Source: Candidatus Omnitrophota bacterium
GTDB taxonomy: Bacteria > Omnitrophota > Gorgyraeia > Zapsychrales > JANLHA01
Direction of reading: 5' to 3'
NCBI GenBank assembly: GCA_963662715.1
Contig: OY759724.1
Span: forward strand, 2,522,662-2,586,661
Length of the DNA: 64,000 nt
Shown here: positions 3,162 through 64,000 of the stretch, piece after piece
Numbering within the stretch: position 1 is the stretch's first letter
How the letters are laid out: each line of letters begins with the position of its first letter
Translations under genes and position numbers: made by a program
Notes under the pieces: generated by a model
The model's database searches: none
What the model saw: only the letters and a program-made list of their open reading frames with translations
What the model was told of the DNA's origin: nothing

Positions 3162-3173
3162 GAGAGGATAATA

Positions 3174-3770: not shown

Positions 3771-3784
3771 TAGCGGAGGTTAAT

Positions 3785-12323: not shown

Positions 12324-12350
12324 GGTAAGTTTTTTACAAGATACTAGAAA

Positions 12351-12390
12351 AACCCTCTGTAATAAATATTACAGAGGGTTTTTCTTTTTG
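12351..12390. terminator. Perfect hairpin, aaccctctgtaata-aat-attacagagggtt followed by a T run. Probable bidirectional terminator for the PEP-CTERM gene and the convergent MCP gene.
   Basis: Read directly. Confidence 0.7.
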
Positions 12391-12596
12391 GCCCGATGGC
12401 CGATATTTTTTAAAAGCAATTTTTAGTGTTTCTTAAAATGATTCCCCAATCAGACCGGGTCTGTCAAAAGCCTTGGAATGTATTGAGTCTTGGCAAAAAA
12501 GAATATCTTGTTTGGACTTACAGCGGGGATACCCCTTTTTCTTCTTCGCTGAGAAGTAACCTATTTGTAGGTGAGGGGGAGGACATTGCCCTCTCT

Positions 12597-14489: not shown

Positions 14490-15184
14490 TCCACTCCCCT
14501 TTTTATTTTTAAAATTAAAAAATAAACAGCCATATAATTATTGTCCAGTTTTTATGCCTGATTTTATCCAAGAAAATAATTTTTTCTCATTTTTTGCTGT
14601 TTTTAAAAGATGTGTCTGGACACGTTTTCTTTTGCCTTTGAATAATATATGTAACAGCCCCCACATGTTTTGAAAATATATACTAAATATATCGCTCCTT
14701 TCTAAAACTTGCATTCAAAATTTTAATTTTTTTAGCCACATAAAAATTAATTAATTATGAAAAAATAACCATGCCAAATACTGTGAGGGTAAAATTAACA
14801 TGGATATCTTGAAAAATTGGTTTACGTCGGAGAGAAAACGTCAGAATTTATTTCGCGTTTGTTGTATTTATAGACGATGCCTCGCCCATATCCCGTAATG
14901 CGTGTAACCTTGTTGCCCCAGGTCTTTGCATCCCGTTAGGTTGGAAATTTTATTTAAGGCAGGATTTATCCGGTATAATGCCGCGGATATTCAGCGCAAT
15001 AATTCTTTAGTAGCCTATTCTGTCCTTATCTTGAGCAAGTCGAGCATAATGTGATAAATAAAAAGACATCGGAAGATTTTTTTCTGATTTTTTTTGACGA
15101 TAAAAAAAACTAGAATCTTGTTGAGCCAGAAGTCAAATTTTAGTTATAATACTAAAAAATTTAATTTAAGGAAGGAGGAGGGGG

Positions 15185-16540: not shown

Positions 16541-16639
16541 TTGCCGTTTTATGTTTCTAAGGGAGCCAAACAGAAATAGATTACGCTAGAGAAAATGGTG
16601 TCTAAGAGAAGTTGCTTCTAACATTTTAGTGAATATAAA

Positions 16640-16685
16640 CACAGTAAGTTATTTATTTTATTTATAAAATAAATAACTTACTGTG
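16640..16685. terminator. 46-nt perfect hairpin with a 20-bp stem and 6-nt loop, AT-rich, about 100 bp downstream of the OMP gene. No T tract follows.
   Basis: cacagtaagttatttatttt-atttat-aaaataaataacttactgtg; arms are exact reverse complements. Confidence 0.45.
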
Positions 16686-17061
16686 GCCCTGTGATCTGAG
16701 AGTCCTGTCGCAACCACTTCCCTTTGATTTTGTATTTGTCGCCAAAACTAACCCTGCAAACAATTCAACTCACCTGCCCCGATCGATGACCAGTATATAT
16801 CGGTTGGGATGAATATATACAATACAGACATCTGACTTGAAGTTTTTTGCGCTATTATTTTTAGAAAATTAAGCATTGATAGTAATTTGTATAATTATTT
16901 TGATTGCCATTTGGAATTAACGTATAATTTTTAATTGAAAAGAGTATTTAGGAAATTAGGAAAGAAAAGACAGTATACCGTAGGCTCAATGGCGGAGTCG
17001 CGGTATAAATTATATCGAAATTTTATAATTATTTACCTTAATGTTAAAAAGGAGTAAAAAT

Positions 17062-18084
17062 ATGAGATGGAATGTTTCAGGCATCATTAGTGTTTGTGCG
17101 ATTTTTTGTTTTGTGAATACCACAATTTGTAAAGCATCTAATGAAAAACAACCCGTCATCGGAGTGTTGAGGCCAGTCCCTCCGTATGCCATTGAGATAG
17201 AGCAAGGGTTTAAGGATACGATGAAATCTTTGGGGTATGAGGAAGGGAAGAATGTCCATTTTCTGCCAACGAAAATAGTGTATGCTGAATCAGAAAAATT
17301 TAGTGAAAACGCGGCAATGGCTAAGGAATTAATTGACCAAGGAGCCAATATCCTTGTTACTATAGGTACCCAGGCGAGTGTGCCGGTATGGCCAGAAATA
17401 GAGAAGACAGGAATTCCGATGATTTTTTCTGGAGTAACTTTTCCCATAGAGGGAGGACTGATAGAAGCGTATGATAAACCTACGGGTAAAAATATAACGG
17501 GAATAAGCTATGGAGTTCCCCCCCTGGCCAGATTAGAGCTTTTTCGTAAGATGTTTCCTAATAAAGAGAATTTTAGTAAACTAGCATTTGTATATGACAG
17601 TCATGTGCTTCAAGAAACGATTTATATGAGACATCTCAAAACACTCGTTGATACGAAAGGATGGGAGATAGTATATATAGATTTTTATGACCCTGATCAA
17701 GGGAAAACCAGTTGTGACCTTTTATTGGAAAATTTGAAGCAGTCTAAGCCAGACCTTATTTTTGGCTGGTTCAGTCTTGACCAGCTGAGTTCTGATAAGC
17801 AATTATTCAAGAAATTGCAAGATTCATATAAAAAACCAATACTTGGGATTACTAGTAAATTTACTGATGAAGGTGCGATCGGTGGGGTTTTAACTAATCA
17901 TTTCTCTTTAGGTGGTCTGCAGGCAAAATTTGTAAATAATATCATCAAAGGTGAAAAAGCGGGAAATATTCCTCCCATTGAACCTGTTGATTTTTTGATA
18001 GAACTTAATCTTAAGAAAGCCACAGAGATGAACTTAGAATTTGATCTGGGTATACTTGCTGCTGCGGACAGATTGGTTCAATAA
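17062..18084 (+). CDS. ABC transporter substrate-binding protein (ABC_sub_bind-like periplasmic protein, ligand unknown)
   Basis: Signal peptide; alternating beta-alpha periplasmic-binding-fold pattern; RBS aaaaggag before the ATG at 17062. The ORF-track start at 17041 would include the RBS. Confidence 0.55.
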   Translation: MRWNVSGIISVCAIFCFVNTTICKASNEKQPVIGVLRPVPPYAIEIEQGFKDTMKSLGYEEGKNVHFLPTKIVYAESEKFSENAAMAKELIDQGANILVTIGTQASVPVWPEIEKTGIPMIFSGVTFPIEGGLIEAYDKPTGKNITGISYGVPPLARLELFRKMFPNKENFSKLAFVYDSHVLQETIYMRHLKTLVDTKGWEIVYIDFYDPDQGKTSCDLLLENLKQSKPDLIFGWFSLDQLSSDKQLFKKLQDSYKKPILGITSKFTDEGAIGGVLTNHFSLGGLQAKFVNNIIKGEKAGNIPPIEPVDFLIELNLKKATEMNLEFDLGILAAADRLVQ

Positions 18085-18507
18085 GATAAGATGAGATTCA
18101 GGTTGGAAACTGTTAATATTTTTAGTCGGCACTATCTCCGGGTGAAAGCTGGAGCTTGTATTTGATCCAGAACCTGATTTGCGTACACCTGTGTTTGTCA
18201 TCAAGGGATTTAGAATTTGTTATGAAATTTTATGATGAGAACAGAGTTTAGTCTCTGATGTGCCTTTGAATGAGGACGATGGCGTAACCGCTGCGCCATG
18301 TCAAGAACGAGTGCCGCAGTTGACCTTCCCTGTATAACTAAACACAAACGATTGAAGTACATCCATGTCCAAACTCCCGTCTGAGATGCGAAGCGATAAG
18401 GCGAGGGAAAAGGTGCCGGACTGGAGCCCCGTCATAGTTCCCCCTGGGGATTCTTTAGCTTTTGATAAATTTTGTTAATTGTAAAATTTGTTTATGATAA
18501 AGAACCC

Positions 18508-18536
18508 TTGACATTTTGGGTTTTATTGTCTATATT
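18508..18536 (+). promoter_or_regulatory. Sigma70 promoter for the Rrf2 regulator gene: TTGACA, 17-nt spacer, TATATT
   Basis: Near-consensus hexamers with canonical spacing, 30 bp upstream of the RBS (aaaggagg) of the ORF at 18569. Confidence 0.55.
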
Positions 18537-18568
18537 ATAGGTATACAAGATAGATAAAGGAGGGCCCC

Positions 18569-18970
18569 ATGAAACTGACCACAAAAAGTGAGTACTCGAT
18601 TCTGGCACTTATTTATATCGCGCGTAAGGAGAAATCAGGCTTTGTAAAAATTGAAAATATCTGTAAAGAATATGACATTTCCAAGAAGTATTTGGAACAG
18701 CTATTCGTTTCGTTGAAACAAGCCAGATACCTTAAAACTAAAACAGGCGCCAGCGGCGGTTATCGGCTGGCAAAGCCGGCAGAAGAAATAAGCCTAGCCG
18801 AGGTGATAAGGCTGATGGACGGGGCTTTAGCTCCTACATTAGCCGTAAGCAAGTACTTTTTCGAACACACTCCATTAGAAAAGGAGAAAAAAGTTATGAA
18901 AGTTTTTAAAGAAATTCGGGATTATATATCAGACAAGGTGGAGCAATTAAAAATATCAGATTTAGTGTGA
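18569..18970 (+). CDS. Rrf2-family (IscR/NsrR-like) transcriptional regulator without the Cys cluster
   Basis: N-terminal MKLTTKSEYSILALIYIA… winged-helix signature of Rrf2 proteins. No CxxxxxCxxxxC motif, so probably not Fe-S binding. Confidence 0.75.
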   Translation: MKLTTKSEYSILALIYIARKEKSGFVKIENICKEYDISKKYLEQLFVSLKQARYLKTKTGASGGYRLAKPAEEISLAEVIRLMDGALAPTLAVSKYFFEHTPLEKEKKVMKVFKEIRDYISDKVEQLKISDLV

Positions 18971-19007
18971 TTCCTGCATATCCATCACGTTTGCAACCGA
19001 GGAGGCC

Positions 19008-19661
19008 ATGGAAGTGAAAGATATTGTTTTATATCTTTTTTTGTTGGGAGGACTGTTGTGTATAGATAGACCAGCTTGGGCAGGCCATAACTGGGAATAC
19101 TGGAGTCACTATGAAGCAGGTAAATCTCTTAATGAGGTTCTGGATTTTAAACTAAAACCGGAATTGCGTTTTAAAGAAGACTTTAGTACCTACTATTACA
19201 GCCATGTTGATATCGGATTGGATTGGAAAGTTAACGATTGGTTTATTTTGAGCCCATATTACCGGTATATCAATGAAGAGAAAAAGGGGGGATGGACGGT
19301 TGAGCATCGCCCCCATTTGAATGCTACTTTTAAATGGAAGACCATTGGACTAAATTTTAGCGACAGAAACAGGTTGGAATATCGTATTAAGGAAGATAAA
19401 GAATTTTTTAGATATACTAACAAACTGACTGTCAAGACGGCAAAATTTACCACATTTGAAATTCAGCCCTATATTGCTGAAGAGCCTTTTTACGATTTCG
19501 ATATAAATGAGTTCAATAAAAACCGTGTATACGGAGGCGTAGACATTAAAATTATTAAGGATCTCAAGGTGGGTATCTGTTATATGTTTGAGAGTAATAA
19601 GAAGCAGGATAAGTGGGGGAATGTCAATATCCTGAAGACCGAATTAAAATGCAGTTTTTAA
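19008..19661 (+). CDS. Hypothetical secreted/outer-membrane protein (beta-rich, aromatic-rich)
   Basis: N-terminal hydrophobic signal; composition typical of a small OM beta-barrel. No recognisable motifs. Confidence 0.45.
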   Translation: MEVKDIVLYLFLLGGLLCIDRPAWAGHNWEYWSHYEAGKSLNEVLDFKLKPELRFKEDFSTYYYSHVDIGLDWKVNDWFILSPYYRYINEEKKGGWTVEHRPHLNATFKWKTIGLNFSDRNRLEYRIKEDKEFFRYTNKLTVKTAKFTTFEIQPYIAEEPFYDFDINEFNKNRVYGGVDIKIIKDLKVGICYMFESNKKQDKWGNVNILKTELKCSF

Positions 19662-19685
19662 CCAAGGTAAATGGAGATCTGAAAA

Positions 19686-20657
19686 ATGAGAAAAATAGTG
19701 AGCAGTTTATTGGCCGTTGGTCTGTTTCTTTCTGTGGCGACTCAGCCCGGTCCAGCAAACGCGCAGGAAGAACTGGAAGGCACAATAACGTTTTCCGGCG
19801 CCTGGGCCTTATATCCTATGGTCGTCAAATGGGCGGAAGAGTTTCAGAAGGTTTACCCTGATGTCAGGATAGATGTTGCCGCCGGAGGCGCGGGCAAAGG
19901 GATGGCGGATGCTTTGGCTTCTGTCGTAGATATAGGTAATGTTTCCCGGGATATTTATCCTGAGGAAATTAAGAAAGGAGCCTGGTTTGTCGCGGTGACG
20001 AAGGACGCCGTTGTTCCCACGTTCAATGAGAACAACCCTTTTAAAGATGTGATCCTTTCAAAAGGCATGAAAAGAGAGGACTTTATCGGAATATGGATGA
20101 ACGGAGATATGACGGATTGGAAAGATGCCGTTTCCGGGGAGTCGAAAGTTCCCGGGAAGACCGGGCTCCACGTGTATACCCGTTCTGACGCCTGCGGTGC
20201 GGCAAAGACATGGGCTAAGTATTTAGGGAAAGACCAGGAAGATTTGCTGGGCATAGGCGTTTACGGCGATCCGGGATTGGCAGAAGCGGTTAGAAAAGAT
20301 GTCCTGGGGATCGGTTTCAACAATATCAATTATGTTTACGACCCGCAGACTAAAATACAGGTTAAAGGGATAAAGGTGTTGCCTGTCGATCTTAACGCTA
20401 ACGGGACAATTGATGAGGATGAGGATTTTTATGAGAGCCGTGATGGGATAACCGAGGCTATCGCCGCGGGGAAATATCCTTCTCCGCCGGCCAGAGATCT
20501 ATACTTTGTTTCTCACGGCAGGCCGCAGAGAGAGGTCGTCATAAAGTTTATGAGATGGGTTTTAACAGAAGGACAGAAATATGTCGCTGAGGCGGGATAT
20601 ATCCCTTTGAACAGCGGTAAGCTTCGGGAAGGCTTGGAAAAACTTGAAAGTCCATAA
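19686..20657 (+). CDS. pstS: Phosphate ABC transporter substrate-binding protein PstS
   Basis: Signal peptide; PstS-family motifs (GTITFSGAWALYP…AAGGAGKG…); immediately upstream of pstCAB. Confidence 0.85.
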   Translation: MRKIVSSLLAVGLFLSVATQPGPANAQEELEGTITFSGAWALYPMVVKWAEEFQKVYPDVRIDVAAGGAGKGMADALASVVDIGNVSRDIYPEEIKKGAWFVAVTKDAVVPTFNENNPFKDVILSKGMKREDFIGIWMNGDMTDWKDAVSGESKVPGKTGLHVYTRSDACGAAKTWAKYLGKDQEDLLGIGVYGDPGLAEAVRKDVLGIGFNNINYVYDPQTKIQVKGIKVLPVDLNANGTIDEDEDFYESRDGITEAIAAGKYPSPPARDLYFVSHGRPQREVVIKFMRWVLTEGQKYVAEAGYIPLNSGKLREGLEKLESP

Positions 20658-48276: not shown

Positions 48277-49248
48277 ATGGCCGATAAAAGAAAAGAGTCC
48301 GGCACTTCTATGAGAGAAGTAAATTATTTGCGTATTTCAGTGACGGATAGATGTAATCTGAAATGTTTTTATTGCATGCCGCAAAACGGCATTGAGCCTG
48401 TCCGGCCCTCCGATATGTTAAGCCTGGAAGATATCGAAAGACTGGCCAGAATCTTTGCGGGGCTTGGATTCAAGAAGATCCGGCTGACCGGGGGAGAGCC
48501 TCTTTTAAGAGTCGGGATCGTTGACCTGGTCAGGAGGATCGCCCGTCTTAACGGTATCCGGGAGGTTTGCCTGACGACAAACGGGGTTCTGCTGGCGGAT
48601 TATGCGGTCCCGTTAAGGCAGGCCGGTTTGACAAGCGTCAATGTCAGCCTTGATACCTTACAGGAAAAAAAGTTCAGGGCCATTACGCAGGCCGACGCTT
48701 TTAAACAGGTCATGCAGGGGCTTGCGAAAATAAAGGCGGCGGGTTTTTCTCCGGTAAAAATAAATGTCGTGGTGATGAACGGTGTTAATGATGATGAAAT
48801 CCTGGACTTTCTTCACTATTCCCTGGAGAACGGTTTTATCGTTAAGTTCATCGAACTGATGCGGATTGCCCCTTCCTGGAAAGCGGAGCGTTTTTTCCCC
48901 GTGGCCGATATTAAAGACAGGTGCCGGAGCATAGCTCCCCTGGATTTGATCGAAGGTTACAGCTCGGGGCCGGCGGAATATTATAAATTTAAAAACGGCA
49001 TTATAGGATTCATCAGAACAGACGAAAATTTGTGCCGGGTCTGTTCCAGACTGAGGATGACCTCCACGGGGGAGCTGAAAGTTTGTCTTTATGAGAACGA
49101 AGGCATGTCTTTGCGGGACCTGATAAGACAGAAAACCCCCAACGGCTTTATCCGTCAGGTCATTCAGGAGAAGATCGCCCTTAAGGCATCGGTGAGTCAT
49201 AAGAATTGGGAGTCTTCCCGGGTTTATATGTGTCGTGTCGGAGGGTAA
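48277..49248 (+). CDS. moaA: GTP 3',8-cyclase MoaA (radical SAM, Moco biosynthesis)
   Basis: LRISVTDRCNLKCFYCMP radical-SAM cluster motif; MoaA-length with C-terminal auxiliary-cluster cysteines (CRVCSRLRMTSTGELKVC). Confidence 0.9.
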   Translation: MADKRKESGTSMREVNYLRISVTDRCNLKCFYCMPQNGIEPVRPSDMLSLEDIERLARIFAGLGFKKIRLTGGEPLLRVGIVDLVRRIARLNGIREVCLTTNGVLLADYAVPLRQAGLTSVNVSLDTLQEKKFRAITQADAFKQVMQGLAKIKAAGFSPVKINVVVMNGVNDDEILDFLHYSLENGFIVKFIELMRIAPSWKAERFFPVADIKDRCRSIAPLDLIEGYSSGPAEYYKFKNGIIGFIRTDENLCRVCSRLRMTSTGELKVCLYENEGMSLRDLIRQKTPNGFIRQVIQEKIALKASVSHKNWESSRVYMCRVGG

Positions 49249-49264
49249 ACATGGAGCCGGATAA

Positions 49265-49702
49265 ATGAAAATGATTGATATTTCCGAAAAACCCGTGACA
49301 AAGAGAACGGCTTGGGTTGAGGCGACAGTGGTTCTTAAGCCTTCGGTCATACGGGCTGTTAAACAGAAGAAAATACCCAAGGGCGATGTCCTGGAAGCGG
49401 CGAGATTGGCCGGTATCCTTGCGGCCAAGAAAACATCCATACTTTTGCCTTTATGCCATCCGGTCCCCCTGGAATACGTCGAGCTTGAATTTGTCCTTAA
49501 ACGGAAAGAAATCGTTGTTAAGGCGATTGTTGAAGGCGAAGCCAAAACAGGGGTGGAAATGGAGGCCTTTACGGCGGCCTCCGTGGCTTGTCTGACCATT
49601 TATGACATGTGCAAATCCCTGGACCGGGCCGGGTGCATTTCCGGGATAAAATTATTAAAGAAAACAGGAGGCAGAAGCGGGTCTTATGAAAGAGCAGAGT
49701 AA
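49265..49702 (+). CDS. moaC: Cyclic pyranopterin monophosphate synthase MoaC
   Basis: KGDVLEAARLAGILAAKKTSILLPLCHP…TGVEMEAFTAASVACLTIYDMCK; MoaC signature. Confidence 0.9.
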   Translation: MKMIDISEKPVTKRTAWVEATVVLKPSVIRAVKQKKIPKGDVLEAARLAGILAAKKTSILLPLCHPVPLEYVELEFVLKRKEIVVKAIVEGEAKTGVEMEAFTAASVACLTIYDMCKSLDRAGCISGIKLLKKTGGRSGSYERAE

Positions 49703-50198
49703 GGGGGTTGTTGCGGCCGTGTCCGTTGCTGCCGAAAGGGGCATGAAAAAAAGAAATGTCCCTTTCGCGGTCTTGAAGAAAGATCATGGAATCATCGGAG
49801 ACGCCCATGCCGGCGACTGGCACAGGCAGGTCAGTTTATTGGCCATGGAGTCGGTTGAAAAGATGCGGCAGAAAGGGTTTGACGTTCATCCGGGTGATTT
49901 TGCGGAAAATATCAATGTTAAGGGCCTTGATCTTTTGCGGATCAAGGTGGGACAGAAAGTCCGGATAGGAGAGGACATCCTTCTGGAAATCAGCCAAATA
50001 GGAAAAGAATGCCACGAGCGATGCCGTATTTATTATCAGGCCGGGGATTGTATTATGCCGAGAGAAGGCTTGTTCGCAAAAGTCATAAGCGGAGGCAGGA
50101 TCCGCGTCGGGGATGAAATAGAAATCCTGGAGAATCTTCCCGGAGGTATTCATGCCGGATGCCCGGAGAATGATCAGAATAAACATATCTGTTTATGA
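49686..50198 (+). CDS. MOSC-domain protein (molybdenum cofactor sulfurase C-terminal-like beta-barrel)
   Basis: About 170 aa with the MOSC-like pattern …GIIGDAHAG…HRQVSLLAMESVE…GDFAENINVKGLDL…GQKVRIGEDILLEISQIGKEC. Co-located with moaA/moaC. Confidence 0.65.
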   Translation: MKEQSKGVVAAVSVAAERGMKKRNVPFAVLKKDHGIIGDAHAGDWHRQVSLLAMESVEKMRQKGFDVHPGDFAENINVKGLDLLRIKVGQKVRIGEDILLEISQIGKECHERCRIYYQAGDCIMPREGLFAKVISGGRIRVGDEIEILENLPGGIHAGCPENDQNKHICL

Positions 50199-52801: not shown

Positions 52802-55800
52802 TTGTTATATAGAGCAAAGGAGTGTGTTTTGTCTTTGGGAAGAATACTCTGTTCCAGAATTTTTAGTTATGTATTAACGATAATAATCACTTTCACCTTT
52901 GTTTTTTACCCTCTGACACCTTCCCGTTATGTTTTTGCCCGGGAAGCGGCCATCCTCGGTTTGCCTGTTCCAGGAACACAGCTCCGGACGTCTGAAAGCT
53001 ATGAGCCGGCTCTTGTCAAAGGCATAACGATATATCCCGACAAGCCTCTGCAATTTAATTTTATTGTTCATCCGGGGGATGACCGGTTGAAGGGTGAGGC
53101 CCTGCAGCAGGAATCTTTAAAGATGATTAAATATTTCCTGGCTACCCTGACTATCCCGAAAGACGAGATGTGGGTCAATTTGTCCCCTTATGAGAAGGAC
53201 CGCATTATTCCTGAAAATCTCGGTATAACGGAAATAGGCCGGGACATGCTGGCGCAGGATTATCTTCTTAAGCAGTTAACCGCTTCCTTAATATATCCGG
53301 AAGAGTCCCTGGGCCGCCGTTTCTGGGACCGCGTCTATAACAAAGTGTATAAGGAATTCGGATTAAAAGAGGTCCCGATCAACACCTTTAATAAAGTCTG
53401 GATCGTCCCGGATAAAGCCGTTGTTTACGAACATGACAATACCGCGTTTGTCATTGACCAGCATTTGAAAGTCATGCTGGAGGAAGATTATCTTGCCTTG
53501 CAGGAAAGCCGGGGTTCGGATGTTTTCCGCAAAAAGAAGATGGATGAAAAAGAGATTTCGGGCATCAACCACGTCTCCTCGGAAATTCTGCGCACCATTA
53601 TTATCCCTGAGATAGAAAAGGAAGTTAACTCAGGCAGAACGTTTGCCGACTTAAGGCAGATCTATAACGCCATGATTCTGGGTATATGGTACAAACAGAC
53701 ACTCAAGAATAGTTTGTTGGCGTCTGTTTATGCCGACCAAAATAAAATTGTCGGCGTGGATGTTGATGATAAGGAGATCAAAGAAAAGATTTACAGACTT
53801 TACATTGAAGCGTACGGGAAAGGGGTCTTCAATTATATCCGTGAAGATACTGATCCCCAGACGCAGGATGTCATCCCGAGAAAATATTTCTCCGGGGGAC
53901 TGGTGGCCCCGGCCCAGGTTACGGTCAAGAACGATTTCGCTCAATTGAATACTGCCGAAAGGCGGAATGTCCGCACGATCGTCAGTTCCCCGATCCAGCA
54001 TCAGGGGATTATTGTCAAAACTTTGGAGCTGAGCCGTCCGGATGCTGAGGCCCGGATTTTAGACATGCTGCGGCAGGCTCTGTTAAAAGATGAGGGGAGA
54101 ACGTTCAGCGTTCTTCAGGACGTGGCCGATTTATTATCCCGGGACGACATGAGGACGATCCCTGATATTCGTGCGGCCCTGGAGCCCTTCAGGGGACGGT
54201 ATTTTTATGACCTGGCCTACGGATATCAGAAAGACAGCCTTGTGCTGGAGCGGGGGGCGGAACTCTGGCTGGTCGTTGATGCGGCCAAGAGAGAAGGGGA
54301 CCGGCTTTACCGGTACATCAAGGCCCGGGACAGTGTTAAGGAAGAAGGCGACAAAGATATCCGTGAGATCATGGATTTCCCGGAGAGTCACTGGCAGATC
54401 GTGCGGGTCCGCAAGGGCGACCTGGAACAGGACAAGCTTATTGATCTGCAGTTGATCGAAGACCATGATTTCCGTGTTATTGACCTGGTGGAAGAAGGGC
54501 GGGATTTAAGAGAAGATGATATCGGGCAGGGTATCGAAGGAGCCAGAGACAGGATTATCGGGGAACTGGATTATCAGGATTATTTGCAGTCGTTTGTGTC
54601 GAGATTGCAGGGAAAAACGATAATGGACGAGAGCGGCCGGACCATCCCGTTATTTGTGAATGAAAAAATCCGGACCGGGGAAGATTTATTAACGGCTTTT
54701 GAACAGGCCCGTCCTTTTCTCGATCAGTTCGATGAGAGCGACCCTATGGAGGATGTGTATGCGCGTTTGCGGGATGTAGGCCTGGAACGCGGCTGGGGAG
54801 ACACGCTGTCCGAAATGAAGACGAGGCTGGATTTGCTGCTGGAATCCGCCGGGGCTGCAGATTCCGTGAGCAGAAAAAGCCTTTTAATGGAACTGGATGA
54901 CCTGACCCCCACAGCGTTATCAGCCGTCTTTGTGAGTACCCATGGATGGTTTGTCCAGGAAAATGCTTTCGGGAAACCCGATACGGGCGGTCAGGTGAGT
55001 TTTGTGCGGGACGAAGCCAAAGCCATGGCTAAAGAGATCGCCGGTAAGATGGAAAGAGCCGGGATTCCCGGTAAAGCTGTCGCCCTGATATTCACGCGCC
55101 TGATTCCCAAAGCCGAGGACACGACCGCCGATCTTCCGGAGGAGTCGGTCTACGAGGATGACCGTCAGGTCGTTAAACTGGTCCGGGTGCCTTTTGAGGA
55201 TCAGGAGCGGTCCGGGGAGGTCAGGGGCCGTCCGCAACCTAAAAATATTCTGGAAGTCATTCAGGCTTTTATCCGGCGGTTTGAAATATGGTCGTATATT
55301 ACTCAGGAAGAATTTATTAATACGGCCGGAGCCAGGATAACAGAGGTGATGAACAGGTACGGGCAGGAGGGGCCGGATATTATTATGGGGAATTATTCCG
55401 ACGGGAACCTGCTGGCGGGCAAATTGTCGGACTATTATGGCGGGAACGTCCCGGTTGTCATGACAGCCCATGCCCTGGAATTGAGCAAATATTTTAAAAG
55501 CATGCTGGAAAACGGCCGCCTGATCGATAACTGGTTTGAGACGGAAGACGGCCGTTATTTGGCGGCCCAGGCTTTGATCGATGCCTGGGTGATGCGTAAG
55601 GCCGATATTATCGAGACGAGCACGTTGCTGGAAATACTCGGCCAGTATTCCTATTATGAATCATTTGAATTTGAAAATCTTTTCCGGGTGGATAACGGGA
55701 TTAAACTTACGGACGGAAAGTTTGTCCTGAATGAACCCAGCGTTGACCAGCGGACAGTAACAAACCCGGACGGGCTGTTCTTCGCCTATGAAGGGCCTGA

Positions 55801-57025
55801 TGATGTCCGCCGGCAGGAGTTTGCCGATGCCAATGCTCTCTGGCAGGCCAAGATTTTTGCTGCTCCTGATGGCAAAAATAAAGTCTACGACCGGTTCGCT
55901 GACTGGAAAGATTCATCCAAACCGGTTGTTTTCACGATGGCGCGTTTTGATTCCCGGAAAAATATTGCGGGCCTGGTTGAGGAGTTCGCTAAAGCGGGCC
56001 TTAAAGACAGGGCCAATCTGGTGATCGTCGGCGGCAACACGGATTATATTATCGACGGAGACGGCAAGGTCGTCTTTAAAAGCCAGGACGGGTCTGACGA
56101 CATGAACGCCGAGGAACTCGCTATCGCGGAAAAGATTCTTGCCTTAGTGGAGCAATACGGTTTAGACGGACACATCCGCTGGATTTCGGCCAGTACTATT
56201 GCCCGTGAATCGGCTGAATTGTACCGGGTTATGGAAGCCCATCCCCAGGGGGCGATTTTCGCCCAGCCGGCTATTTTTGAGGCTTTTGGTTTAACAATTC
56301 TGGAAGCTATGGTCACAAAACTTATGGTTGTGGCTACGGATCAGGGAGGCCCGGCAGAGATCATCCGCCATCACCAGGACGGTTTTCTGGCCAATCCTGA
56401 AATCCCGGGAGAGTTCGGGGAACGGTTGGGGGAAGCTTTGGATGCCCTGGCCAACGCTGAACAGAAACAGGCGATTATCCATTCTGCCCTGGAACGGATC
56501 GCCAGTAAATACAGCTGGCGCAGGCGGGTGCAGAGAACCTTGCAGGCGACGAAATTGTTTTCCACGCTTAATGATGTTGACCGGAATCAGCGTCCGGACC
56601 ACTGGCAGGCCCGGAAACAATCCCAGGAGAAGGTTTACCGGGATATCCTGGATATGATTGACAATCTGGTGTGGGTTCATAAACTGGACCTTATTCCGCC
56701 GGAAGCACAGCCGGAAATGGAAAACCTGATCGGTGAGCAATTCAGAACGGGGGCGGAAGCCGTTTCAAGCCCGCTGGCTCAGGACGCCGAGACAGATGCC
56801 GGGTCTTATTACGGCGGTATCGATTTGAATTCAGATATGCTGGACCTGCAGATCAAACGTGACGGCCGGGGCGTGGCCCTGCCGCTTCCTCAGCAGCCGA
56901 TTCAGAATATGACAATCCAGGGATTCATGCCGATCATCATTGATGTTGTCCCGGTGAATGTTCCCTTGTTGTTAGGGACCTTGGAAAGCTCCTCTGATAA
57001 TATGCCGTCCGATGACGAAACATAG
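52802..57025 (+). CDS. 1407-aa sucrose-synthase-like glycosyltransferase (GT4, GT-B fold) with a roughly 400-aa N-terminal membrane-anchored extension of unknown function and a roughly 100-aa C-terminal tail
   Basis: Central and C-terminal regions match sucrose-synthase hallmarks in order. (a) GLERGWGDT…RLDLLLE (SuS [10 protein letters not shown]…LLDLLEAP). (b) [34 protein letters not shown] (SuS [33 protein letters not shown]). (c) [22 protein letters not shown]…ANLVIVGG (SuS [22 protein letters not shown]…). (d) [36 protein letters not shown] (SuS [36 protein letters not shown]). The N-terminus carries a hydrophobic helix ([19 protein letters not shown]). Confidence 0.75.
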   Translation: [1407 protein letters not shown]

Positions 57026-57112
57026 TCTTTAGGTCTGCCCGAGAAATTGAGCATTCCTGTCGTGCTGGACGGGAATGCGGCATTTTTATGGCGGAGACAG
57101 GACATTTCAAAA

Positions 57113-57144
57113 AGAGATCAACCATAAGGTTGATCTCTTTTTTG
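57113..57144 (+). terminator. Rho-independent terminator, agagatcaacc-ataa-ggttgatctct plus T6
   Basis: Perfect 11-bp stem plus T tract after the sucrose-synthase-like gene. Confidence 0.65.
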
Positions 57145-57301
57145 TGTCCGGGAAGGGGCGTTGCGAATCGTAAGCCTAGGAACCGGAAACTGTGCTGTCG
57201 GGGGCAGCGTTCTTAACGGGGCAGGGCAAAGGGCCGACTTTAATGGTTGAGATTTCTATCTGCCGGTGTTACATTAAGAAGGAAATTTTTAACGACATAA
57301 T

Positions 57302-58075
57302 TTGGAGAATAACTCTATGAATATTAATTTTAGTAAACCCGCTGTTGAGATTAACGATTTGACCGTGGCTTATCAAGAGAGTCCTGTCTTATGGGATATT
57401 GATCTTAATATTCCCAAAGGGGTTTTATCCGCCATCATCGGGCCTAACGGAGCGGGTAAAAGTACGCTCATCAAGGCCATTTTGGGACTGCTGCGGCCCG
57501 TGGCCGGCGAGGTTTTTGTTTTCGGCGAGCCTTACAAAAAACAGCGTCAGGTGGTGGGGTATGTTCCTCAGAGAACCAGTGTTGACTGGGATTTTCCTGC
57601 CAGTGTTTTGGATGTCGTGATGATGGGGCTTTACGGCCGGTTGGGATGGATTAAACGCCCCGGTAAAGCGGAAAAGGATATGGCGCTGGAAGCTTTGCAT
57701 AAAATGGGCATGGCGGAGTTTGCCGGCCGCCAGATCAGTCAATTATCCGGAGGGCAGCAGCAGCGGACCTTCCTGGCCCGGGCTCTGGTTCAGGATGCGC
57801 TGGTTTATTTTATGGATGAACCTCTGCAGGGTGTCGATATCCACACGGAGAAAGCCGTTATCCGTTTGCTGCATGAATTGCGCGACCAGGGAAAGACCCT
57901 GATGGTGGTTCATCATGACCTGCAGACAGTTTCGGAATATTTTGACTGGGTCGTGATGCTGAACAAACGTTTAACTGTGAGCGGGAAAGTGGAGGATGTT
58001 TTTACGGAAGAGAATCTTCGGCAGACATACCGCGGCATGATGTCGTTCATGCATAAGACCGTACCGGCCAGTTGA
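57302..58075 (+). CDS. Metal (Zn/Mn-type) ABC transporter ATP-binding protein
   Basis: Walker A GPNGAGKST, signature LSGGQQQR, Walker B VYFMDEP; ZnuC/MntB-type size and operon context. Confidence 0.85.
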   Translation: MENNSMNINFSKPAVEINDLTVAYQESPVLWDIDLNIPKGVLSAIIGPNGAGKSTLIKAILGLLRPVAGEVFVFGEPYKKQRQVVGYVPQRTSVDWDFPASVLDVVMMGLYGRLGWIKRPGKAEKDMALEALHKMGMAEFAGRQISQLSGGQQQRTFLARALVQDALVYFMDEPLQGVDIHTEKAVIRLLHELRDQGKTLMVVHHDLQTVSEYFDWVVMLNKRLTVSGKVEDVFTEENLRQTYRGMMSFMHKTVPAS

Positions 58076-59217
58076 TCACAATTATGATTGATTTTATCCA
58101 GACAATTTGGGGGGATTACACTTTACGGACCGTTATCATGGGAACAGCTCTGCTGGGCATGGTCAACGGGGTTCTGGGGTGTTTTGCCTTTTTGCGCCGT
58201 CAAAGCCTGCTGGGTGACTCCATCGCGCACGCGGCCCTGCCGGGCATCGCGTTGGCGTTTTTATTAACGGGAAGTAAGGCCACGATTGTTTTGATTATCG
58301 GTGCTGCTGTTTCGGGATGGCTGGGAATGCTGCTGGTGATGTCTATTATCCGGATGACCCGGATCAAAGAGGACAGCGCCCTGGGCATGATGTTATCGGT
58401 CTTTTTCGGCCTGGGGATGGTGCTTTTGACATTTATCAACCGTCTGCCCACAGCGAGCAAGGCCGGGTTACAAAAGTTTTTGTTCGGAATGGCCGCGACA
58501 ATGCTGGAAAGTGATGTCCTGGCCATGGCCGTTCTGGGATTGCTTGTTTTGTTTTTAGTGATTGTGTTCTGGAAAGAATTCAAGCTCTTGTCCTTTAACC
58601 CGGAGTACGGAGAAACATTGGGCTATCCGGTGCATCTTTTGGATGTTTTGTTAACGGCGATGATCGTTATGTCTATCGTGATTGGACTGGAGGCTGTGGG
58701 CGTTATTTTAATGAGTTCCCTGATCGTGGCCCCGGCCGCGGCCGCCCGGCAGTGGACAGACCGGTTGAACGTGATGGTCGTTTTGGCTGCTGTTTTCGGG
58801 GCCAGTTCCGGTATATTCGGCGCGCTGTTAAGCGGCGCGGTCAGCCGTTTGTCGACCGGGCCGACCATTGTTTTATTTGTTACGGCGGTATTTGTTGTTT
58901 CCTTTATTATTTCTCCTAAACGGGGTATCCTTTTTACCTGGATCCGCCGGGTGCAAAGCCGCCATAAAATCCGTTTTGAAAATGTCCTCACCGACCTTTA
59001 TCATTTGTCCCTTCATCATGCAGAGCCGCGGGGGCATCCGGTGCCGGTTCTGCGGACGATGAACTCCAGGGGCGTCGGTATTCAAAGAAGTCTAAACCTC
59101 ATGCAGCGTCTGGGGCTAGTCCGGCAGACGAAAAGGGATCTCTGGATTTTGACGGAAAAGGGAACGGCCGAAGCTGAGAAAATATTGAAACAGCGGGGAG
59201 CACCGAATGGATATTGA
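58072..59217 (+). CDS. Metal ABC transporter permease (ZnuB/MntC type) fused to a C-terminal DtxR/MntR-like winged-helix DNA-binding domain
   Basis: 8-TM ABC-3 permease ending at the usual …ISPKRGILF. It is followed by about 95 extra residues, ENVLTDLYHLSLHH…VPVLRTMNSRGVGIQRSLNLMQRLGLVRQTKRDLWILTEKGTAEAEKIL, that align with the MntR/DtxR N-terminal DNA-binding domain (EDYIEQIYMLIEE…[49 protein letters not shown]). Confidence 0.75.
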   Translation: MITIMIDFIQTIWGDYTLRTVIMGTALLGMVNGVLGCFAFLRRQSLLGDSIAHAALPGIALAFLLTGSKATIVLIIGAAVSGWLGMLLVMSIIRMTRIKEDSALGMMLSVFFGLGMVLLTFINRLPTASKAGLQKFLFGMAATMLESDVLAMAVLGLLVLFLVIVFWKEFKLLSFNPEYGETLGYPVHLLDVLLTAMIVMSIVIGLEAVGVILMSSLIVAPAAAARQWTDRLNVMVVLAAVFGASSGIFGALLSGAVSRLSTGPTIVLFVTAVFVVSFIISPKRGILFTWIRRVQSRHKIRFENVLTDLYHLSLHHAEPRGHPVPVLRTMNSRGVGIQRSLNLMQRLGLVRQTKRDLWILTEKGTAEAEKILKQRGAPNGY

Positions 59218-60316
59218 AACCATTCAGATTATTCTGATTGCCTGTTTAACGGCAGCGACATGCGCGGTGCTGGGCGTTTTTCTTGTCCTGCGCCGTATGG
59301 CTTTAATGAGCGATGCGATCAGTCATTCGATTCTGTTGGGAATCGTTCTCGTGTTTTTTCTTGTTGAAGATCTGTCCTCCCCCTGGCTGATCGTCGGGGC
59401 AGGGGCGACAGGCCTGCTCATGGCTGTTCTGGTTGAAGCCCTTAATAAAACCCATTTAGTCAAGGAGGATGCTTCTATCGGCCTGGTTTTTCCGGCCTTG
59501 TTCAGCATAGGCGTTATTCTGATTAACCTCTATGCCGGCAATATCCATTTGGATATTGATGCTGTTTTGGTCGGGGACTTGGTTTTTGCCCCGTTTAATA
59601 CGTTGACGGTGTCTGGACGGGATGTGGGGCCTAAAGCCCTTTATGTCATGTCGTGCTTACTGCTGCTGAATGTTTTGTTTATCATTGTCTTTTTTAAGGA
59701 ATTCAAGTTGTCGACTTTTGACGCCGGATTGGCTTCGACCTTTGGCTTCGCGCCCGGCCTATTGCACTATGTTTTTATGGGCCTGGTTTCCATAACGGCT
59801 GTAGGCGCTTTTGATACTGTAGGTTCGATTCTCGTTGTCGCACTGATGATTGCGCCTCCGGCCTCCGCTTTTCTGCTTACGAGCCGTTTAGTGACTATGC
59901 TTTGGTTGAGCGCGGGGTTCGGGATTCTGAGCGCTGTAACCGGCTTTTTTATCGCCCATGCCCTTGATTCCTCCATATCTGGATGCATTGCCGTTATGAC
60001 CGGAGTTTATTTCCTTTTAACATTTCTCTTGGCTCCTCATCGGGGTGTTTTGGCTATTATCAAACGCCGTTTGACCCAGCGGCTGGAATTCGCCCAGGGT
60101 GTCTTGGCGGTGCATCTGGCCCATCATCGGGGCAGGGAGGAAGAGCGCCAGGAATGCCGGGCAGACCATTTGACCGACCATATCCGATGGGAGCCGGGAT
60201 TTGCCCAGAAAGTTATCGACCTCTCTCAAAAAGATCAGCTTATTATTAACCAAAAAGGGATTTTAAAGTTAACCCAGAAAGGACTGGAATTAGCGGATAC
60301 GGTCATGGAAAATTAA
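59207..60316 (+). CDS. Second metal ABC transporter permease, also with a roughly 90-aa C-terminal DtxR-like winged-helix extension
   Basis: ABC-3 permease core ending …LAPHRGVLAIIKRR, then LEFAQGVLAVHLAHH…ADHLTDHIRWEPGFAQKVIDLSQKDQLIINQKGILKLTQKGLELADTVM. The pattern is the same as in the previous gene's extension (hydrophobic helix, H-rich turn, …LTxKGxExA…). Confidence 0.7.
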   Translation: MDIETIQIILIACLTAATCAVLGVFLVLRRMALMSDAISHSILLGIVLVFFLVEDLSSPWLIVGAGATGLLMAVLVEALNKTHLVKEDASIGLVFPALFSIGVILINLYAGNIHLDIDAVLVGDLVFAPFNTLTVSGRDVGPKALYVMSCLLLLNVLFIIVFFKEFKLSTFDAGLASTFGFAPGLLHYVFMGLVSITAVGAFDTVGSILVVALMIAPPASAFLLTSRLVTMLWLSAGFGILSAVTGFFIAHALDSSISGCIAVMTGVYFLLTFLLAPHRGVLAIIKRRLTQRLEFAQGVLAVHLAHHRGREEERQECRADHLTDHIRWEPGFAQKVIDLSQKDQLIINQKGILKLTQKGLELADTVMEN

Positions 60317-60343
60317 TGTCCCTAATCCGGGAGGAGTTTATTT

Positions 60344-61246
60344 ATGAATCACCGCAGAATCATTATCAATACGGGCCTGGCCGTTCTGTGTTTTCTCTGG
60401 TGCGGCGCGGGGACGGGTTTCGCACAGCAGGTGCGAGTTCTGGCGACAACCGGAATGATCGCCGATGTGGCGTCGAATGTGGGGCAGGATTTGGTTGAGG
60501 TGACGGCTTTGATGGGGCCGGGTGTCGATCCTCATTTGTATCAGGCCACGGCACGGGATGTTCAACGGATGCGCAAGGCCGATATCATTTTTTATAATGG
60601 GCTTCATCTGGAAGCCGGCCTGCAGAAGATTTTAGAAAAGATGCCCCAAAAGGCTGTTGCTGTTACAAAAGATATTCCGGAAGATATTATTCAGACCCGT
60701 GATCATAAGCATGACCCGCATGTCTGGATGGATGTCTCCTTATGGATCAGAGCCGTGGAGACCGTTAGGAACGGCCTTATTCAAAAGGACCCCGCAAACA
60801 GACAACGCTATGAACAGCAGGCGAAAGATTATCTGCAAAAACTTCAGGCCCTGCACGGCTCCATTATGAAAAAAGTTGCCCTCATCCCGGAGAACGGCCG
60901 GGTGCTTATCACGGCGCATGACGCGTTCGCCTATTTTGGCAAAGCCTATGGGATGGAGGTTAAAGCCTTGATGGGTATTAGTACGCAGACCGAAGCCGGG
61001 ACGAAAGATGTGCAGGACCTGACGGCGTTTATCGTTTCCGGAAAAATCAAAGCCATCTTTGTGGAAAGCAGTGTGCCGGAGAAATATGTTGAAGCGGTTC
61101 AGGAGGCCGTAAAGCAAAAGGGATTTGATGTGCAAATCGGAGGAGAGTTGTTTTCCGATGCCATGGGCGCAGAGGGGACTTTTGAAGGAACGTATATCGG
61201 AATGTTGACCCATAATACGGATACGATCGTCAATGCCCTTAAATAA
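60344..61246 (+). CDS. Metal ABC transporter substrate-binding protein (ZnuA/TroA/MntC cluster-A-1 type)
   Basis: Signal peptide; metal-coordinating His-containing motifs (GVDPHLY…, HDPHVWMD…, ITAHDAFAYF) typical of the TroA/ZnuA family. Confidence 0.85.
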   Translation: MNHRRIIINTGLAVLCFLWCGAGTGFAQQVRVLATTGMIADVASNVGQDLVEVTALMGPGVDPHLYQATARDVQRMRKADIIFYNGLHLEAGLQKILEKMPQKAVAVTKDIPEDIIQTRDHKHDPHVWMDVSLWIRAVETVRNGLIQKDPANRQRYEQQAKDYLQKLQALHGSIMKKVALIPENGRVLITAHDAFAYFGKAYGMEVKALMGISTQTEAGTKDVQDLTAFIVSGKIKAIFVESSVPEKYVEAVQEAVKQKGFDVQIGGELFSDAMGAEGTFEGTYIGMLTHNTDTIVNALK

Positions 61247-61374: not shown

Positions 61375-61683
61375 ATGAAAAGGATATTATTATTTTTGTC
61401 TTTGATCTGGATGAGCGCGTGTTCCACTTCAGCCGAATATACAAGCAAAAAATTTGACGTTCCTGAAAAACAATTAAGTTGTGAAGAACGATGGTCAGAA
61501 TTAAAAAAGGGACTGCATTATAGTGAAGTGAATGATTTGCTGGGTTCTATTTCGAAACTTTCCCAGGAGGAGGCTTGCACGTTGGCGAAGAATGGAGGCT
61601 ATAAAATCTATAGCAAAAAAGGTTCTTTTCTCTTCGATAAGTCGTGTCTGCTTGAAAAATGGACGAATTATGAGTGTCCTTAG
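61375..61683 (+). CDS. Hypothetical small Cys-containing lipoprotein
   Basis: Signal peptide with lipobox (MSACS); 6 Cys in 100 aa. Confidence 0.4.
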   Translation: MKRILLFLSLIWMSACSTSAEYTSKKFDVPEKQLSCEERWSELKKGLHYSEVNDLLGSISKLSQEEACTLAKNGGYKIYSKKGSFLFDKSCLLEKWTNYECP

Positions 61684-61755: not shown

Positions 61756-62832
61756 ATGTTCTGTAAGGGGATGTCGGGCCGACCATGTAGGAGGATGAAT
61801 AGTAAAATGAGCAGTTCGCATGATGTTGAAAAACAAATTATCATTGGCACAAATGCCGGCCAGAAGAATTATCAGTTCGATGAAGAACATGACCCGAATC
61901 TTCCGGCCCAGATGTGGTTTCAGGAATCCGAAGAAGGAGAGATCCTTTTTATCGTTTTTTATTCGCAGGCCTGCCGATGGTCCCGCTGTCTCGGCTGTAA
62001 TTTGCCTTCCCGGATGGCCCAAAAACATGTCGGTTTTAAGGCCCTGATGGCTCAAGCGGATTATGTTTTTACCCGCCCGGAAGTCGTCAGGCGGAGCCCC
62101 TGCTTAAAGAAAGTCATCGTCAGCAACAATGGTTCTGTTTTGGATGAGGCGACATTTTCTTCGACAGCATTGATATACCTCATGGCCAAAATGAACCTTC
62201 ACTTTCCGCAACTCGCGGTTTTGACTCTGGAAACGAGAGTGGAGTATGTGGATATCGAAGAGCTGGAATTTATAGCCCGTACGTTAGCCGAGGGGGATAC
62301 CCCGACCATGCTGGAGATAGCTGTGGGCTTTGAAGCTTTTGATGACCGTATAAGAAATGAGGTTTTTCATAAAGGACTGACGCTGGAAACATTTGAAAAG
62401 TTGTGCGCTATGCTGGCCGTGCATGGTTTTCGTTTAAAGTGTTATTTTATGCAGAAGCCGGTTCCCGGGTTGTCCGATGAGGAGGCCATCCTCGACATCC
62501 ACCGGGCCATTGATTATTTGAGTGAACAATCACGGAAGTTCGGAATAAAAATCAACATGCACCTGAACCCGACCTTCGTGGCGGCGGGAACGATGTTGGA
62601 ACAGAGTTTTAGACGTCAGCAGTATTCCCCTCCGAAATTGACGGATGTCATTCGTGCGGCCGTAAAAGGAGAAGGGAAAAACATTTCTGTTTATCTTGGC
62701 CTTTCCGATGAAGGGCTGGCCTGCGAAGGCGGATCCTTTATCCGGCCCGGGGACGAACCTCTCATCAATCAATTGGAGGTTTTCAATAAAACACAGAATT
62801 ACAGCCTGCTTCATGAAATATTGTCTTCTTGA
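61756..62832 (+). CDS. Putative radical-SAM-like Fe-S enzyme with a non-canonical CX4CX2C motif. The start codon is uncertain; alternative ATGs lie at 61796 and 61807.
   Basis: ACRWSRCLGC occupies the position where radical-SAM enzymes carry CX3CX2C, after a beta strand (ILFIVFYSQ). Downstream SNNGS and alternating beta/alpha segments are compatible with a partial TIM barrel. No confident family assignment. Confidence 0.3.
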   Translation: MFCKGMSGRPCRRMNSKMSSSHDVEKQIIIGTNAGQKNYQFDEEHDPNLPAQMWFQESEEGEILFIVFYSQACRWSRCLGCNLPSRMAQKHVGFKALMAQADYVFTRPEVVRRSPCLKKVIVSNNGSVLDEATFSSTALIYLMAKMNLHFPQLAVLTLETRVEYVDIEELEFIARTLAEGDTPTMLEIAVGFEAFDDRIRNEVFHKGLTLETFEKLCAMLAVHGFRLKCYFMQKPVPGLSDEEAILDIHRAIDYLSEQSRKFGIKINMHLNPTFVAAGTMLEQSFRRQQYSPPKLTDVIRAAVKGEGKNISVYLGLSDEGLACEGGSFIRPGDEPLINQLEVFNKTQNYSLLHEILSS

Positions 62833-62851: not shown

Positions 62852-63835
62852 TTATAAAATTTCCTTGCCAGTGATGAGCGTCAGCAGTTTAGGGTAAACG
62901 AGGTGAATCTTCTGGTCGGGCTGTTCGGGATCGATCAGGTCATGGCCCAATTGAAGATTTTTCGGAAATTCATAATGCCGTATTTTATGCGGGTCGTGCG
63001 AGCGCCAGTTTCTTTTAACCGTTTTAATGCTTTTTCTGTTAACCGCTTTGTCATTCGCATTTGTTATGATGATAATGGCCCCTGCCGAAGGTTGATGTTT
63101 TCCCCCTTCCGCCTGTATATGCCATCCTAAACGCCTGATTTCCCCGAGCGCTCTCGCTGAAAAGCCGTAATAGGCTGACTCAGGACCTTTCATTTGGGCT
63201 TTTTCCAGGGGGTTCCACCAGACAAACCGGTCGGGTAATATGAGCAGGAGGTTGATTGTGGGTTTCAGGAATATCTCCGGGGCCACATATGTTCCGAAAT
63301 TCGGGGCAATTAAAACAGCCTGATCAACATCATTACGGAACTGCGCGGCCCAGCCGGTCATGACCCCGCCCATGGACAGCCCCACCACTGTCACCCGTTC
63401 GCCCAACCCCCGGGCGATATCCACGGATTCATCGCAAAATGCCTTGAGTTCTTCCGCTGTCAGATACCCTAAATCCGGGGCCATCCGGTCTTTATGCCCG
63501 TGGCGGGGGAGCCGTGGAATCAGGACGTTATACCCCAACTTATAAAATTCTTCCCCCAGCGCTTTAAACTGGCGCGGGCTGTTGGTAAATCCATGGAAAA
63601 ACACGATAGCCTCGTTCACCTTTTTCCCGTGATTCATAAAGATCAACTGTCCGGTGGGGGCGAGTTCCCGGGAGTTTAAGTTTTTCAATTTTTCTATTCT
63701 CTGCAGACTTTCCTGATAACTTTTGGCGGGACGGGGCCGGGAGAACAGGGTCTGGGTGTTAACCGAATATAATCGGGAGAGGGCTATCCCGATGACGGAT
63801 ATCCAGATAAGTTTTTTAACTGATATCTTGAACAT
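62852..63835 (-). CDS. Alpha/beta-hydrolase-fold protein (secreted esterase/lipase-like)
   Basis: N-terminal TM/signal; HGF oxyanion motif (VFFHGFTNS); nucleophile elbow GLSMGG; C-terminal His-containing region. Confidence 0.75.
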   Translation of the reverse strand: MFKISVKKLIWISVIGIALSRLYSVNTQTLFSRPRPAKSYQESLQRIEKLKNLNSRELAPTGQLIFMNHGKKVNEAIVFFHGFTNSPRQFKALGEEFYKLGYNVLIPRLPRHGHKDRMAPDLGYLTAEELKAFCDESVDIARGLGERVTVVGLSMGGVMTGWAAQFRNDVDQAVLIAPNFGTYVAPEIFLKPTINLLLILPDRFVWWNPLEKAQMKGPESAYYGFSARALGEIRRLGWHIQAEGGKHQPSAGAIIIITNANDKAVNRKSIKTVKRNWRSHDPHKIRHYEFPKNLQLGHDLIDPEQPDQKIHLVYPKLLTLITGKEIL

Positions 63836-64000
63836 AGAAATTTATTCAAGCGGGTTGGGATCTGTGTTGTTATTGACAGCCTTTTATGTCCCGTTTTCCC
63901 GTACGGGATTTTAGAAAGCTTCTGGAAAATAGATACTTGAAGATTAGTGTATACTAAAATACGTTTCTTGACAATAGTTTGGCATGTCCGGTCCGGGGCA

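Follow-up and report, generated by a model that had tools for sequence, protein, structure and literature searches.

Both permeases of a Tro-type metal importer from Candidatus Omnitrophota end in DtxR/MntR-related winged-helix domains that may serve as transporter-embedded metal sensors

What does the winged-helix fold of a metal-dependent repressor do at the end of a membrane permease, and what does it do there twice in one transporter? This question is raised by a 64,000-nucleotide stretch of DNA from Candidatus Omnitrophota bacterium (contig OY759724.1; the whole stretch is called the window here). Its plus strand carries at 57302–61246 a four-gene operon for a metal importer of the ATP-binding cassette (ABC) type, encoding an ABC ATPase, permease 1, permease 2 and a ZnuA-family binding protein, with the genes overlapping or almost abutting. 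A sequence-only reading of this DNA had noted that both permeases are over-long and that their extra residues, the tails, resemble the winged helix of DtxR/MntR repressors, and it had proposed a doubled repressor modelled on the chlamydial YtgC-YtgR fusion. The structural part of that proposal holds, as the tails are DtxR-like winged helices, while the doubled-repressor function is weakened by separate regulators and by a variable helix 3. We favour, with a probability of roughly 0.4, the reading that the tails could be transporter-embedded sensors of cytoplasmic metal that feed back on import.

Permease 1 (58072–59217, 381 amino acids) and permease 2 (59207–60316, 369 amino acids, its start overlapping the end of permease 1 by 11 nt) were both confirmed as open reading frames (ORFs) of the plus strand. 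Their transmembrane cores, residues 1–283 (58072–58920) and 1–278 (59207–60040), respectively, match Pfam ABC-3 (PF00950) over residues 16–280 (E-value 1.8e-66, 224.8 bits) and 7–274 (E-value 1.5e-45, 156.2 bits), and both exceed the gathering cut-off of 20.1 bits. The cores stop at SPKRG in permease 1 and at APHRG in permease 2, the usual core end, after which 96 and 89 more residues follow, as had been claimed. The solved ABC-3 permeases (PsaC of 282–290 and ZnuB of 260 amino acids) match residues 7–287 of permease 1 only and have no tail. Tail 1 (permease 1 residues 284–381 plus the stop codon, 58921–59217) is composed of a basic, Trp-containing juxtamembrane helix and a DtxR-type winged helix, and tail 2 (permease 2 residues 279–369 plus the stop codon, 60041–60316) of a DtxR/MntR-type winged helix. 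The motifs on which the sequence-only reading was built, DLYHLSLHH, a His-rich turn and LTEKGTAEAEKIL / LTQKGLELADTVM, were all found.

Fusions of this kind could be artefacts of a frameshift, a misassembly or read-through. To this end, the 120 best homologues of each permease were compared. They are of near-equal length (mostly 375–381 and 369–370 amino acids), and their alignments are gapless through the tails, with 46–75% of the sequences carrying the consensus residue per 20-residue block. Because length and gapless alignment are conserved among homologues from hundreds of independent genomes of many phyla, and the folds of the tails are confidently predicted, we regard an artificial fusion, which had been named as what would overturn the finding, as ruled out.

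The descent of the tails was not evident from standard family searches. Pfam Fe_dep_repress (PF01325) gave no match at E-values up to 1 with either tail or either full protein. Fe_dep_repr_C (PF02742) did not match either, and the tails stop 12–15 residues past the wing, so that neither has the dimerisation and metal-binding domain of DtxR (domain 2), in agreement with what had been noted. Pfam and NCBIfam scans of the tails returned no significant family, only faint winged-helix hints, and single-sequence phmmer searches with the tails against the PDB gave no meaningful match. Profiles were then built from 35 tail-1 and 45 tail-2 sequences. The best PDB sequence matches were Thermoplasma acidophilum IdeR, SloR and ScaR for the first profile (A1) and Bacillus subtilis MntR, IdeR and DtxR for the second (A2), with marginal E-values of 0.04–0.1.

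The fold and the profile–profile comparisons were clearer. AlphaFold2 models of each tail in isolation had a mean predicted local distance difference test score (pLDDT) of 79 for tail 1 and 88 for tail 2, and both show the order H1-H2-H3-beta-beta-H4, i.e., a winged helix and one trailing helix. In a Foldseek search against the PDB, the N-terminal domains of MntR, IdeR and DtxR were at or near the top for both tails (2.1–3 Å over 72–76 columns). For hhalign, the reference was a profile of 28 true DtxR-type regulators that adjoin related operons. Tail 1 matched it with a probability of 92% and a P-value of 6.6e-7 over 70 columns, with tail residues 18–90 lying on regulator residues 7–77, so the match spans the whole DNA-binding domain of the regulators. 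The match of tail 2 was weaker (52%, P-value 1.4e-4, 49 columns) and shares its register with tail 1, and when the tails were compared with one another, their last 42 columns proved related (81%). We conclude firmly that tail 1 descends from the N-terminal domain of DtxR/MntR; tail 2 does so as well, a case that rests mainly on its fold. Thus, the predicted similarity to DtxR/MntR was borne out by profile–profile homology in register with true regulators and by fold matches, but not by the Pfam family that had been suggested for its detection.

To see how common the arrangement is, one genome per species was scanned. At least 588 relatives were found, and the best 80 loci were examined. They come from Chloroflexota, Gemmatimonadota, Bacteroidota (including the cultured Winogradskyella wichelsiae), Rhodothermales, Poribacteria, Zixibacteria, Dadabacteria, Calditrichota, Thermodesulfobacteriota, Actinomycetota, Sumerlaeaceae and others. 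In nearly all of them the binding-protein gene comes first and is followed by those for the ATPase, permease 1 and permease 2, in that order; in the window and in L084, its nearest relative, the binding-protein gene is the final one. Sorted with tail-specific hidden Markov models, 67 of the 80 loci carry tail 1 on permease 1 and tail 2 on permease 2, five have a tail-2-type domain on both permeases, six have a tail on permease 2 only and two are cut by a contig end. The close relative L087 likewise has an untailed permease 1 of 304 amino acids and a tail on permease 2 only. In an exhaustive profile search of 1.84 billion representative proteins, tail 2 was found in 422 clusters, always C-terminal on such permeases or their fragments. 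Tails on both permeases are thus the rule in a large clade that is annotated only as "metal ABC transporter permease", and the fusions expected in related genomes are indeed there.

Several individual loci deserve mention. The tail-2 profile repeatedly matched ORFs of 71 amino acids, which suggested tail genes that stand alone but were rejected as gene-calling artefacts of frameshifted metagenomic contigs: in about 20 other representative clusters and in L088 (1220–2315), permease 2 is split into an ORF of about 300 amino acids and one of 71 that starts at a conserved Met of helix 1, the cause in L088 being a frameshift in the last transmembrane region. In one relative (P0307, a 646-amino-acid fragment) both tailed permeases form a single chain, permease 1 with its tail being joined by a linker to permease 2 with tail 2; its tail-1-like domain has no His cluster (see below), and the linker is rich in Pro, Thr and Ala and contains an extra hydrophobic segment. 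A contig of candidate division KSB3 (L085) has, besides the tailed operon, a canonical ABC-3 system encoded 2 kb away on the other strand (2369–4027), with an untailed permease of 272 amino acids. In L087 (4228–5783) the tailed operon is divergent from NicO/DUF1007 nickel-cobalt transporter genes, and a TTAGGCAAGCCTAA box lies in the shared intergenic region.

Are the tails the repressor of their own operon? A complete free-standing DtxR-type regulator of about 220 amino acids lies directly beside the tailed permeases in at least 27 of the 80 loci (34%) and additionally in L083, a lower bound as many contigs are short. These regulators have the Fe_dep_repress and Fe_dep_repr_C domains and often FeoA/SH3 domains. 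The exact palindrome TTAG-N6-CTAA was present in 35 of 76 upstream regions, compared to 0.35 expected from shuffles. Of 26 loci with a regulator alongside, 16 have it, in most cases 24–60 nt before the regulator gene; of 50 loci without one, 19 do. The 19-bp DtxR/IdeR box TTAGGTTAGSCTAACCTAA includes the pattern. An alternative operator pattern of different spacing, TTAGNCNNNNGNCTAA, was not enriched in the upstream regions. In the relatives where transcription control is visible, it appears to come from a separate full-length DtxR/TroR-type repressor that acts on TTAG-N6-CTAA.

The recognition helix points in the same direction. Helix 3 of the adjacent regulators is nearly invariant (consensus PASVTGMxKKLA), with a mean entropy of 0.94 bit and a net charge of +1.6. 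The exposed positions of helix 3 are variable in tail 1 (1.96–2.20 bit, net charge −0.2, i.e., neutral to acidic on average) and in tail 2 (2.04–2.10 bit, net charge +0.9). Conservation in helix 3 of the tails is confined to buried positions, and the recognition motif P-A/T-S/T-V-S/T...K/R is not kept. As a reader of an operator that is shared across phyla should resemble the regulators, and the tails do not, they are unlikely to read it. The variants with a tail on permease 2 only argue, in addition, against an obligatory pair of DNA-binding domains. A repressor reading of the tails is therefore weakly supported.

What the tails do conserve, beyond the hydrophobic core and the wing motif (W/L-x-L-T-x-x-G-x-x-x-A), is a set of His and carboxylate residues at the end of H1 and in H2. 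In tail 1, the cluster HHAEPRGH (59014–59037) lies between where H1 ends and where H2 begins; the consensus in the family reads Q-H-x-D-x-x-H-x-H, and its first and last His are present in all 67 sequences of the 12 commonest patterns. In tail 2, the cluster HLAHH...QEC...HLTDH (60113–60181) has two HxxxH motifs, on H1 and H2, and an invariant Glu, with the family consensus I-H-L-x-x-H-E-G ... E ... H-L-x-x-H-L-R-W. All five residues of the H-H-E-H-H pattern occur together in the window and in 74 of 92 family members, and among the 91 sequences with the 12 commonest patterns none departs from it at the first three positions. The frequency of His in the rest of the tails is 2%. As DtxR and MntR have no such cluster, and as the helix-1 ligand positions E-D of the regulators' consensus are A-V in tail 1, the cluster looks like a metal site gained after the fusion.

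Taken together, the tails are cytoplasmic winged-helix domains of about 90 residues that are derived from the DtxR/MntR N-terminal domain, have lost the dimerisation and metal-binding half as well as the conserved DNA-reading helix, and have gained a conserved His/Glu cluster at the H1-H2 junction. On the sensor reading, metal that is imported and accumulates in the cytoplasm would fill the His/Glu sites of the tails. The filled sites might alter the packing of the tails against each other, against the ATPase dimer or against the permease gate, and the altered packing could slow import in a replete cell, a feedback (trans-) inhibition at the transporter itself. The anatomy of the tails, their homology, distribution and conservation pattern and their co-occurrence with separate regulators are observed here, whereas it is inferred that the cluster binds metal and that transport responds. 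Several points weigh against this sensor reading. The chlamydial precedent, YtgR, is a working repressor (PMC5599777). Tail 2 keeps a mildly basic helix 3 with a semi-conserved Arg at the position of Gln43 in DtxR. An adjacent regulator is seen at about a third of the loci only, and the convergence of the His/Glu residues in space is suggested by helical periodicity only. Finally, as the sequence-only reading had already stated, no regulator gene is visible beside the operon in the window itself: from 42 kb to the window end, i.e., about 15 kb upstream and 3 kb downstream of the operon, no Zur, MntR, DtxR or Fur gene was seen. The DtxR-type palindrome that might have been expected upstream of 57302 was not found either, as the operon leader (57143–57316) has no TTAG-N6-CTAA box. 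As the window has neither a nearby regulator nor a palindrome upstream of the operon, the tails may have a regulatory role in this genome.

The most obvious alternative is the one proposed originally, that the tails are functional DNA-binding domains, paired by the permease heterodimer or released by proteolysis, which repress the operon in a manner coupled to transport, as a doubled and truncated YtgC-YtgR. Their homology to the DtxR/MntR DNA-binding domain in both sequence and fold agrees with this, as do the YtgR precedent, the permease-repressor fusions reported in 11 phyla (PMC5599777), the lack of a metalloregulator near the window operon and the basic tendency of helix 3 in tail 2; the His cluster could even render DNA binding metal-dependent. 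We nevertheless consider it unlikely. The exposed face of the recognition helix varies in the very loci in which the operator and the helix of the free regulator are conserved, helix 3 is neutral to acidic on average in tail 1, and complete DtxR regulators are present in at least 34% of the operons. The tails have no dimerisation domain, and six loci and L087 have a single tail, on permease 2. In the AlphaFold2 model of tail 2, one long helix runs from the membrane segment into H1 of the winged helix, and because H1 is continuous with this juxtamembrane helix, there is no flexible linker for reaching DNA. The missing palindrome upstream of the window operon and the unmatched Fe_dep_repress family also speak against it.

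If the tails do not bind DNA, they do not have to be sensors. They could be structural or assembly modules that dock the ATPase dimer or give the permease heterodimer its specificity, with the His cluster holding a structural metal or stabilising the fold. The conserved hydrophobic core, length and rigid attachment, the restriction of the tails to these permeases and the single-chain protein P0307, which suggests that they act in cis at the membrane, would all suit such a role. However, canonical ABC-3 importers assemble without tails, the variants with a tail on permease 2 only assemble too, and in a metal importer, a near-invariant HxxxH pair with a Glu is more readily understood as a metal site that regulates; a purely structural role is in our estimation improbable. 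Another way to keep the tails regulatory is partner capture, in which they would bind or release a free DtxR/TroR-type repressor or another soluble factor depending on the state of the transporter, as in MalK-MalT. Three DtxR-derived domains often occur in one operon and the tails have conserved surfaces that are not for DNA, but DtxR dimerises via domain 2, which the tails lack, and two thirds of the loci have no visible adjacent regulator, which makes this very unlikely. In a related and rather speculative scheme, the two tails would form a metal-dependent heterodimeric module that ties transport status to gene expression, through DNA binding at the membrane or through capture and release of DtxR/TroR. 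If this were true, metal importers in more than 12 phyla would double as signal transducers, and chlamydial YtgCR would be one specialised offshoot.

The remaining genes place the tailed permeases in a familiar type of importer. The ATPase (57302–58075) is TroB-like, with an ABC_tran match of 100.8 bits. Its mechanical ORF start is the TTG at 57302, but translation probably begins at the ATG at 57317, 8 nt behind a GGAG (57305–57308). The periplasmic metal-binding protein (60344–61246) matches Pfam ZnuA with an E-value of 7.7e-83 (278.4 bits) and is nearest to Treponema pallidum TroA (1TOA/1K0F) with 278.5 bits, compared to 164 bits for the next solved structure. Since it is far nearer to TroA than to other solved homologues, the operon is identified by its sequence as encoding a cluster A-I ABC importer of the Tro type (TroABCD-like), with Mn, Zn or Fe as its substrate. 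Upstream, a hairpin at 57109–57142 (plus strand) has a perfect 15-bp stem (AAAAAGAGATCAACC / GGTTGATCTCTTTTT), a 4-nt loop and runs of A and T on its flanks. It is probably an intrinsic terminator, bidirectional in look, between a glycosyltransferase gene and the transporter operon, and it probably bounds the promoter region of the operon on the 5' side. The promoter and leader region of the operon that follows (57143–57316, plus strand) contains two weak sigma-70-like matches (57247–57275 and 57274–57301).

Further observations concern the rest of the window. TTAG-N6-CTAA has one exact match in the whole window, TTAGTGTATACTAA at 63944–63957, about 110 nt upstream of a minus-strand alpha/beta-hydrolase gene (62852–63835); with a chance expectation of about 0.75 matches per window it may be meaningless. 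The glycosyltransferase gene is an ORF of 1407 amino acids (52802–57025), the C-terminal half of which is a sucrose-synthase-like GT-B glycosyltransferase (SUS_EPBD, GT-B_Sucrose_synth, Glycos_transf_1) and the first approximately 600 residues of which have no Pfam family match. Further upstream, molybdenum cofactor genes (MoaA-like radical SAM, MoaC and a MOSC-domain protein) are found at 48277–50198, and behind them come genes for a PEMT/ICMT-like methyltransferase and a MatE efflux pump. Downstream of the operon there are two ORFs without a Pfam match, 61756–62832 (358 amino acids) and 61375–61683 (102 amino acids, with a lipoprotein-like N-terminus). The region 10001–20000 has a G+C content of 0.37–0.41, compared to 0.45–0.53 across most of the window, and may be of foreign origin.

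How do the tails compare with known systems? PsaBC and ZnuBC have a homologous transmembrane core, but their permeases are of 260–290 amino acids and end where the tails start. Like the N-terminal domain of DtxR, IdeR and MntR (PF01325), the tails have the H1-H2-H3-wing-H4 topology, with these proteins as best structural matches and with profile matches in register; unlike it, they stay under the Pfam threshold, do not conserve the recognition-helix motif, have no domain 2 and have a His-rich insertion between H1 and H2. Trans-inhibition domains, such as the C2 domain of MetNI and the C-terminal domain of ModBC, are cytoplasmic parts of a transporter that bind its substrate and inhibit further import. 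The logic proposed here for the sensor reading is shared with them, but their domains are on the ATPase and have other folds, whereas here a winged helix is on the permeases. No account of these truncated tails or their His cluster turned up in our literature searches; Thompson et al. in 2012 reportedly described permease-repressor fusions in 11 phyla, and these may overlap with the present tails.

Among the closest known systems are the Tro operons of Treponema pallidum and T. denticola, where TroC has 298–304 and TroD 366–367 amino acids and TroR is the DtxR-like repressor of the operon (PMC2628430, Table 1). As in the window, there is a TroA-like binding protein with two different permeases, and TroD is about as long as permease 2 (369 amino acids); judging by length alone, its extra residues are probably the tail-2 domain. 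TroR lies in the operon, like the regulator in 27 of the 80 relatives of the window operon. In contrast, TroC is by its length untailed, which matches loci such as L079 and L087, where permease 2 alone is tailed, and not the doubled form of the window, and no troR is visible near the window operon (42 kb to the window end).

Another is YtgC-YtgR of Chlamydia trachomatis, in which the ABC-3 permease of a TroA/YtgA-type importer likewise ends in a cytoplasmic domain that is related by descent to DtxR (PMC5599777). In this system a single permease carries the domain, YtgR, which is a complete DtxR-like repressor with the conserved DtxR metal ligands; it is released by cleavage and, with Fe2+, binds to the ytg promoter (PMC5599777). 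Compared with YtgCR as it is described in a review, the window tails consist of a winged helix and one trailing helix only, are on both permeases, lack the DtxR helix-1 ligands and have a different His/Glu cluster, and the relatives often encode a separate full regulator. The tails are thus remote PF01325 homologues undetected by Pfam, a widespread and unannotated variant of the YtgC-YtgR type of fusion. Such fusions, known from Chlamydia, have so far been treated as an oddity, whereas here a DtxR-derived domain is standard on both permeases of a large Tro-type clade. The tail domain family merits a profile of its own, as thousands of proteins are annotated only as "metal ABC transporter permease". 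If the His/Glu cluster binds metal, the tails would represent a novel means by which an ABC importer monitors its own substrate inside the cell, and the clade that carries them would supply an evolutionary context for YtgCR.

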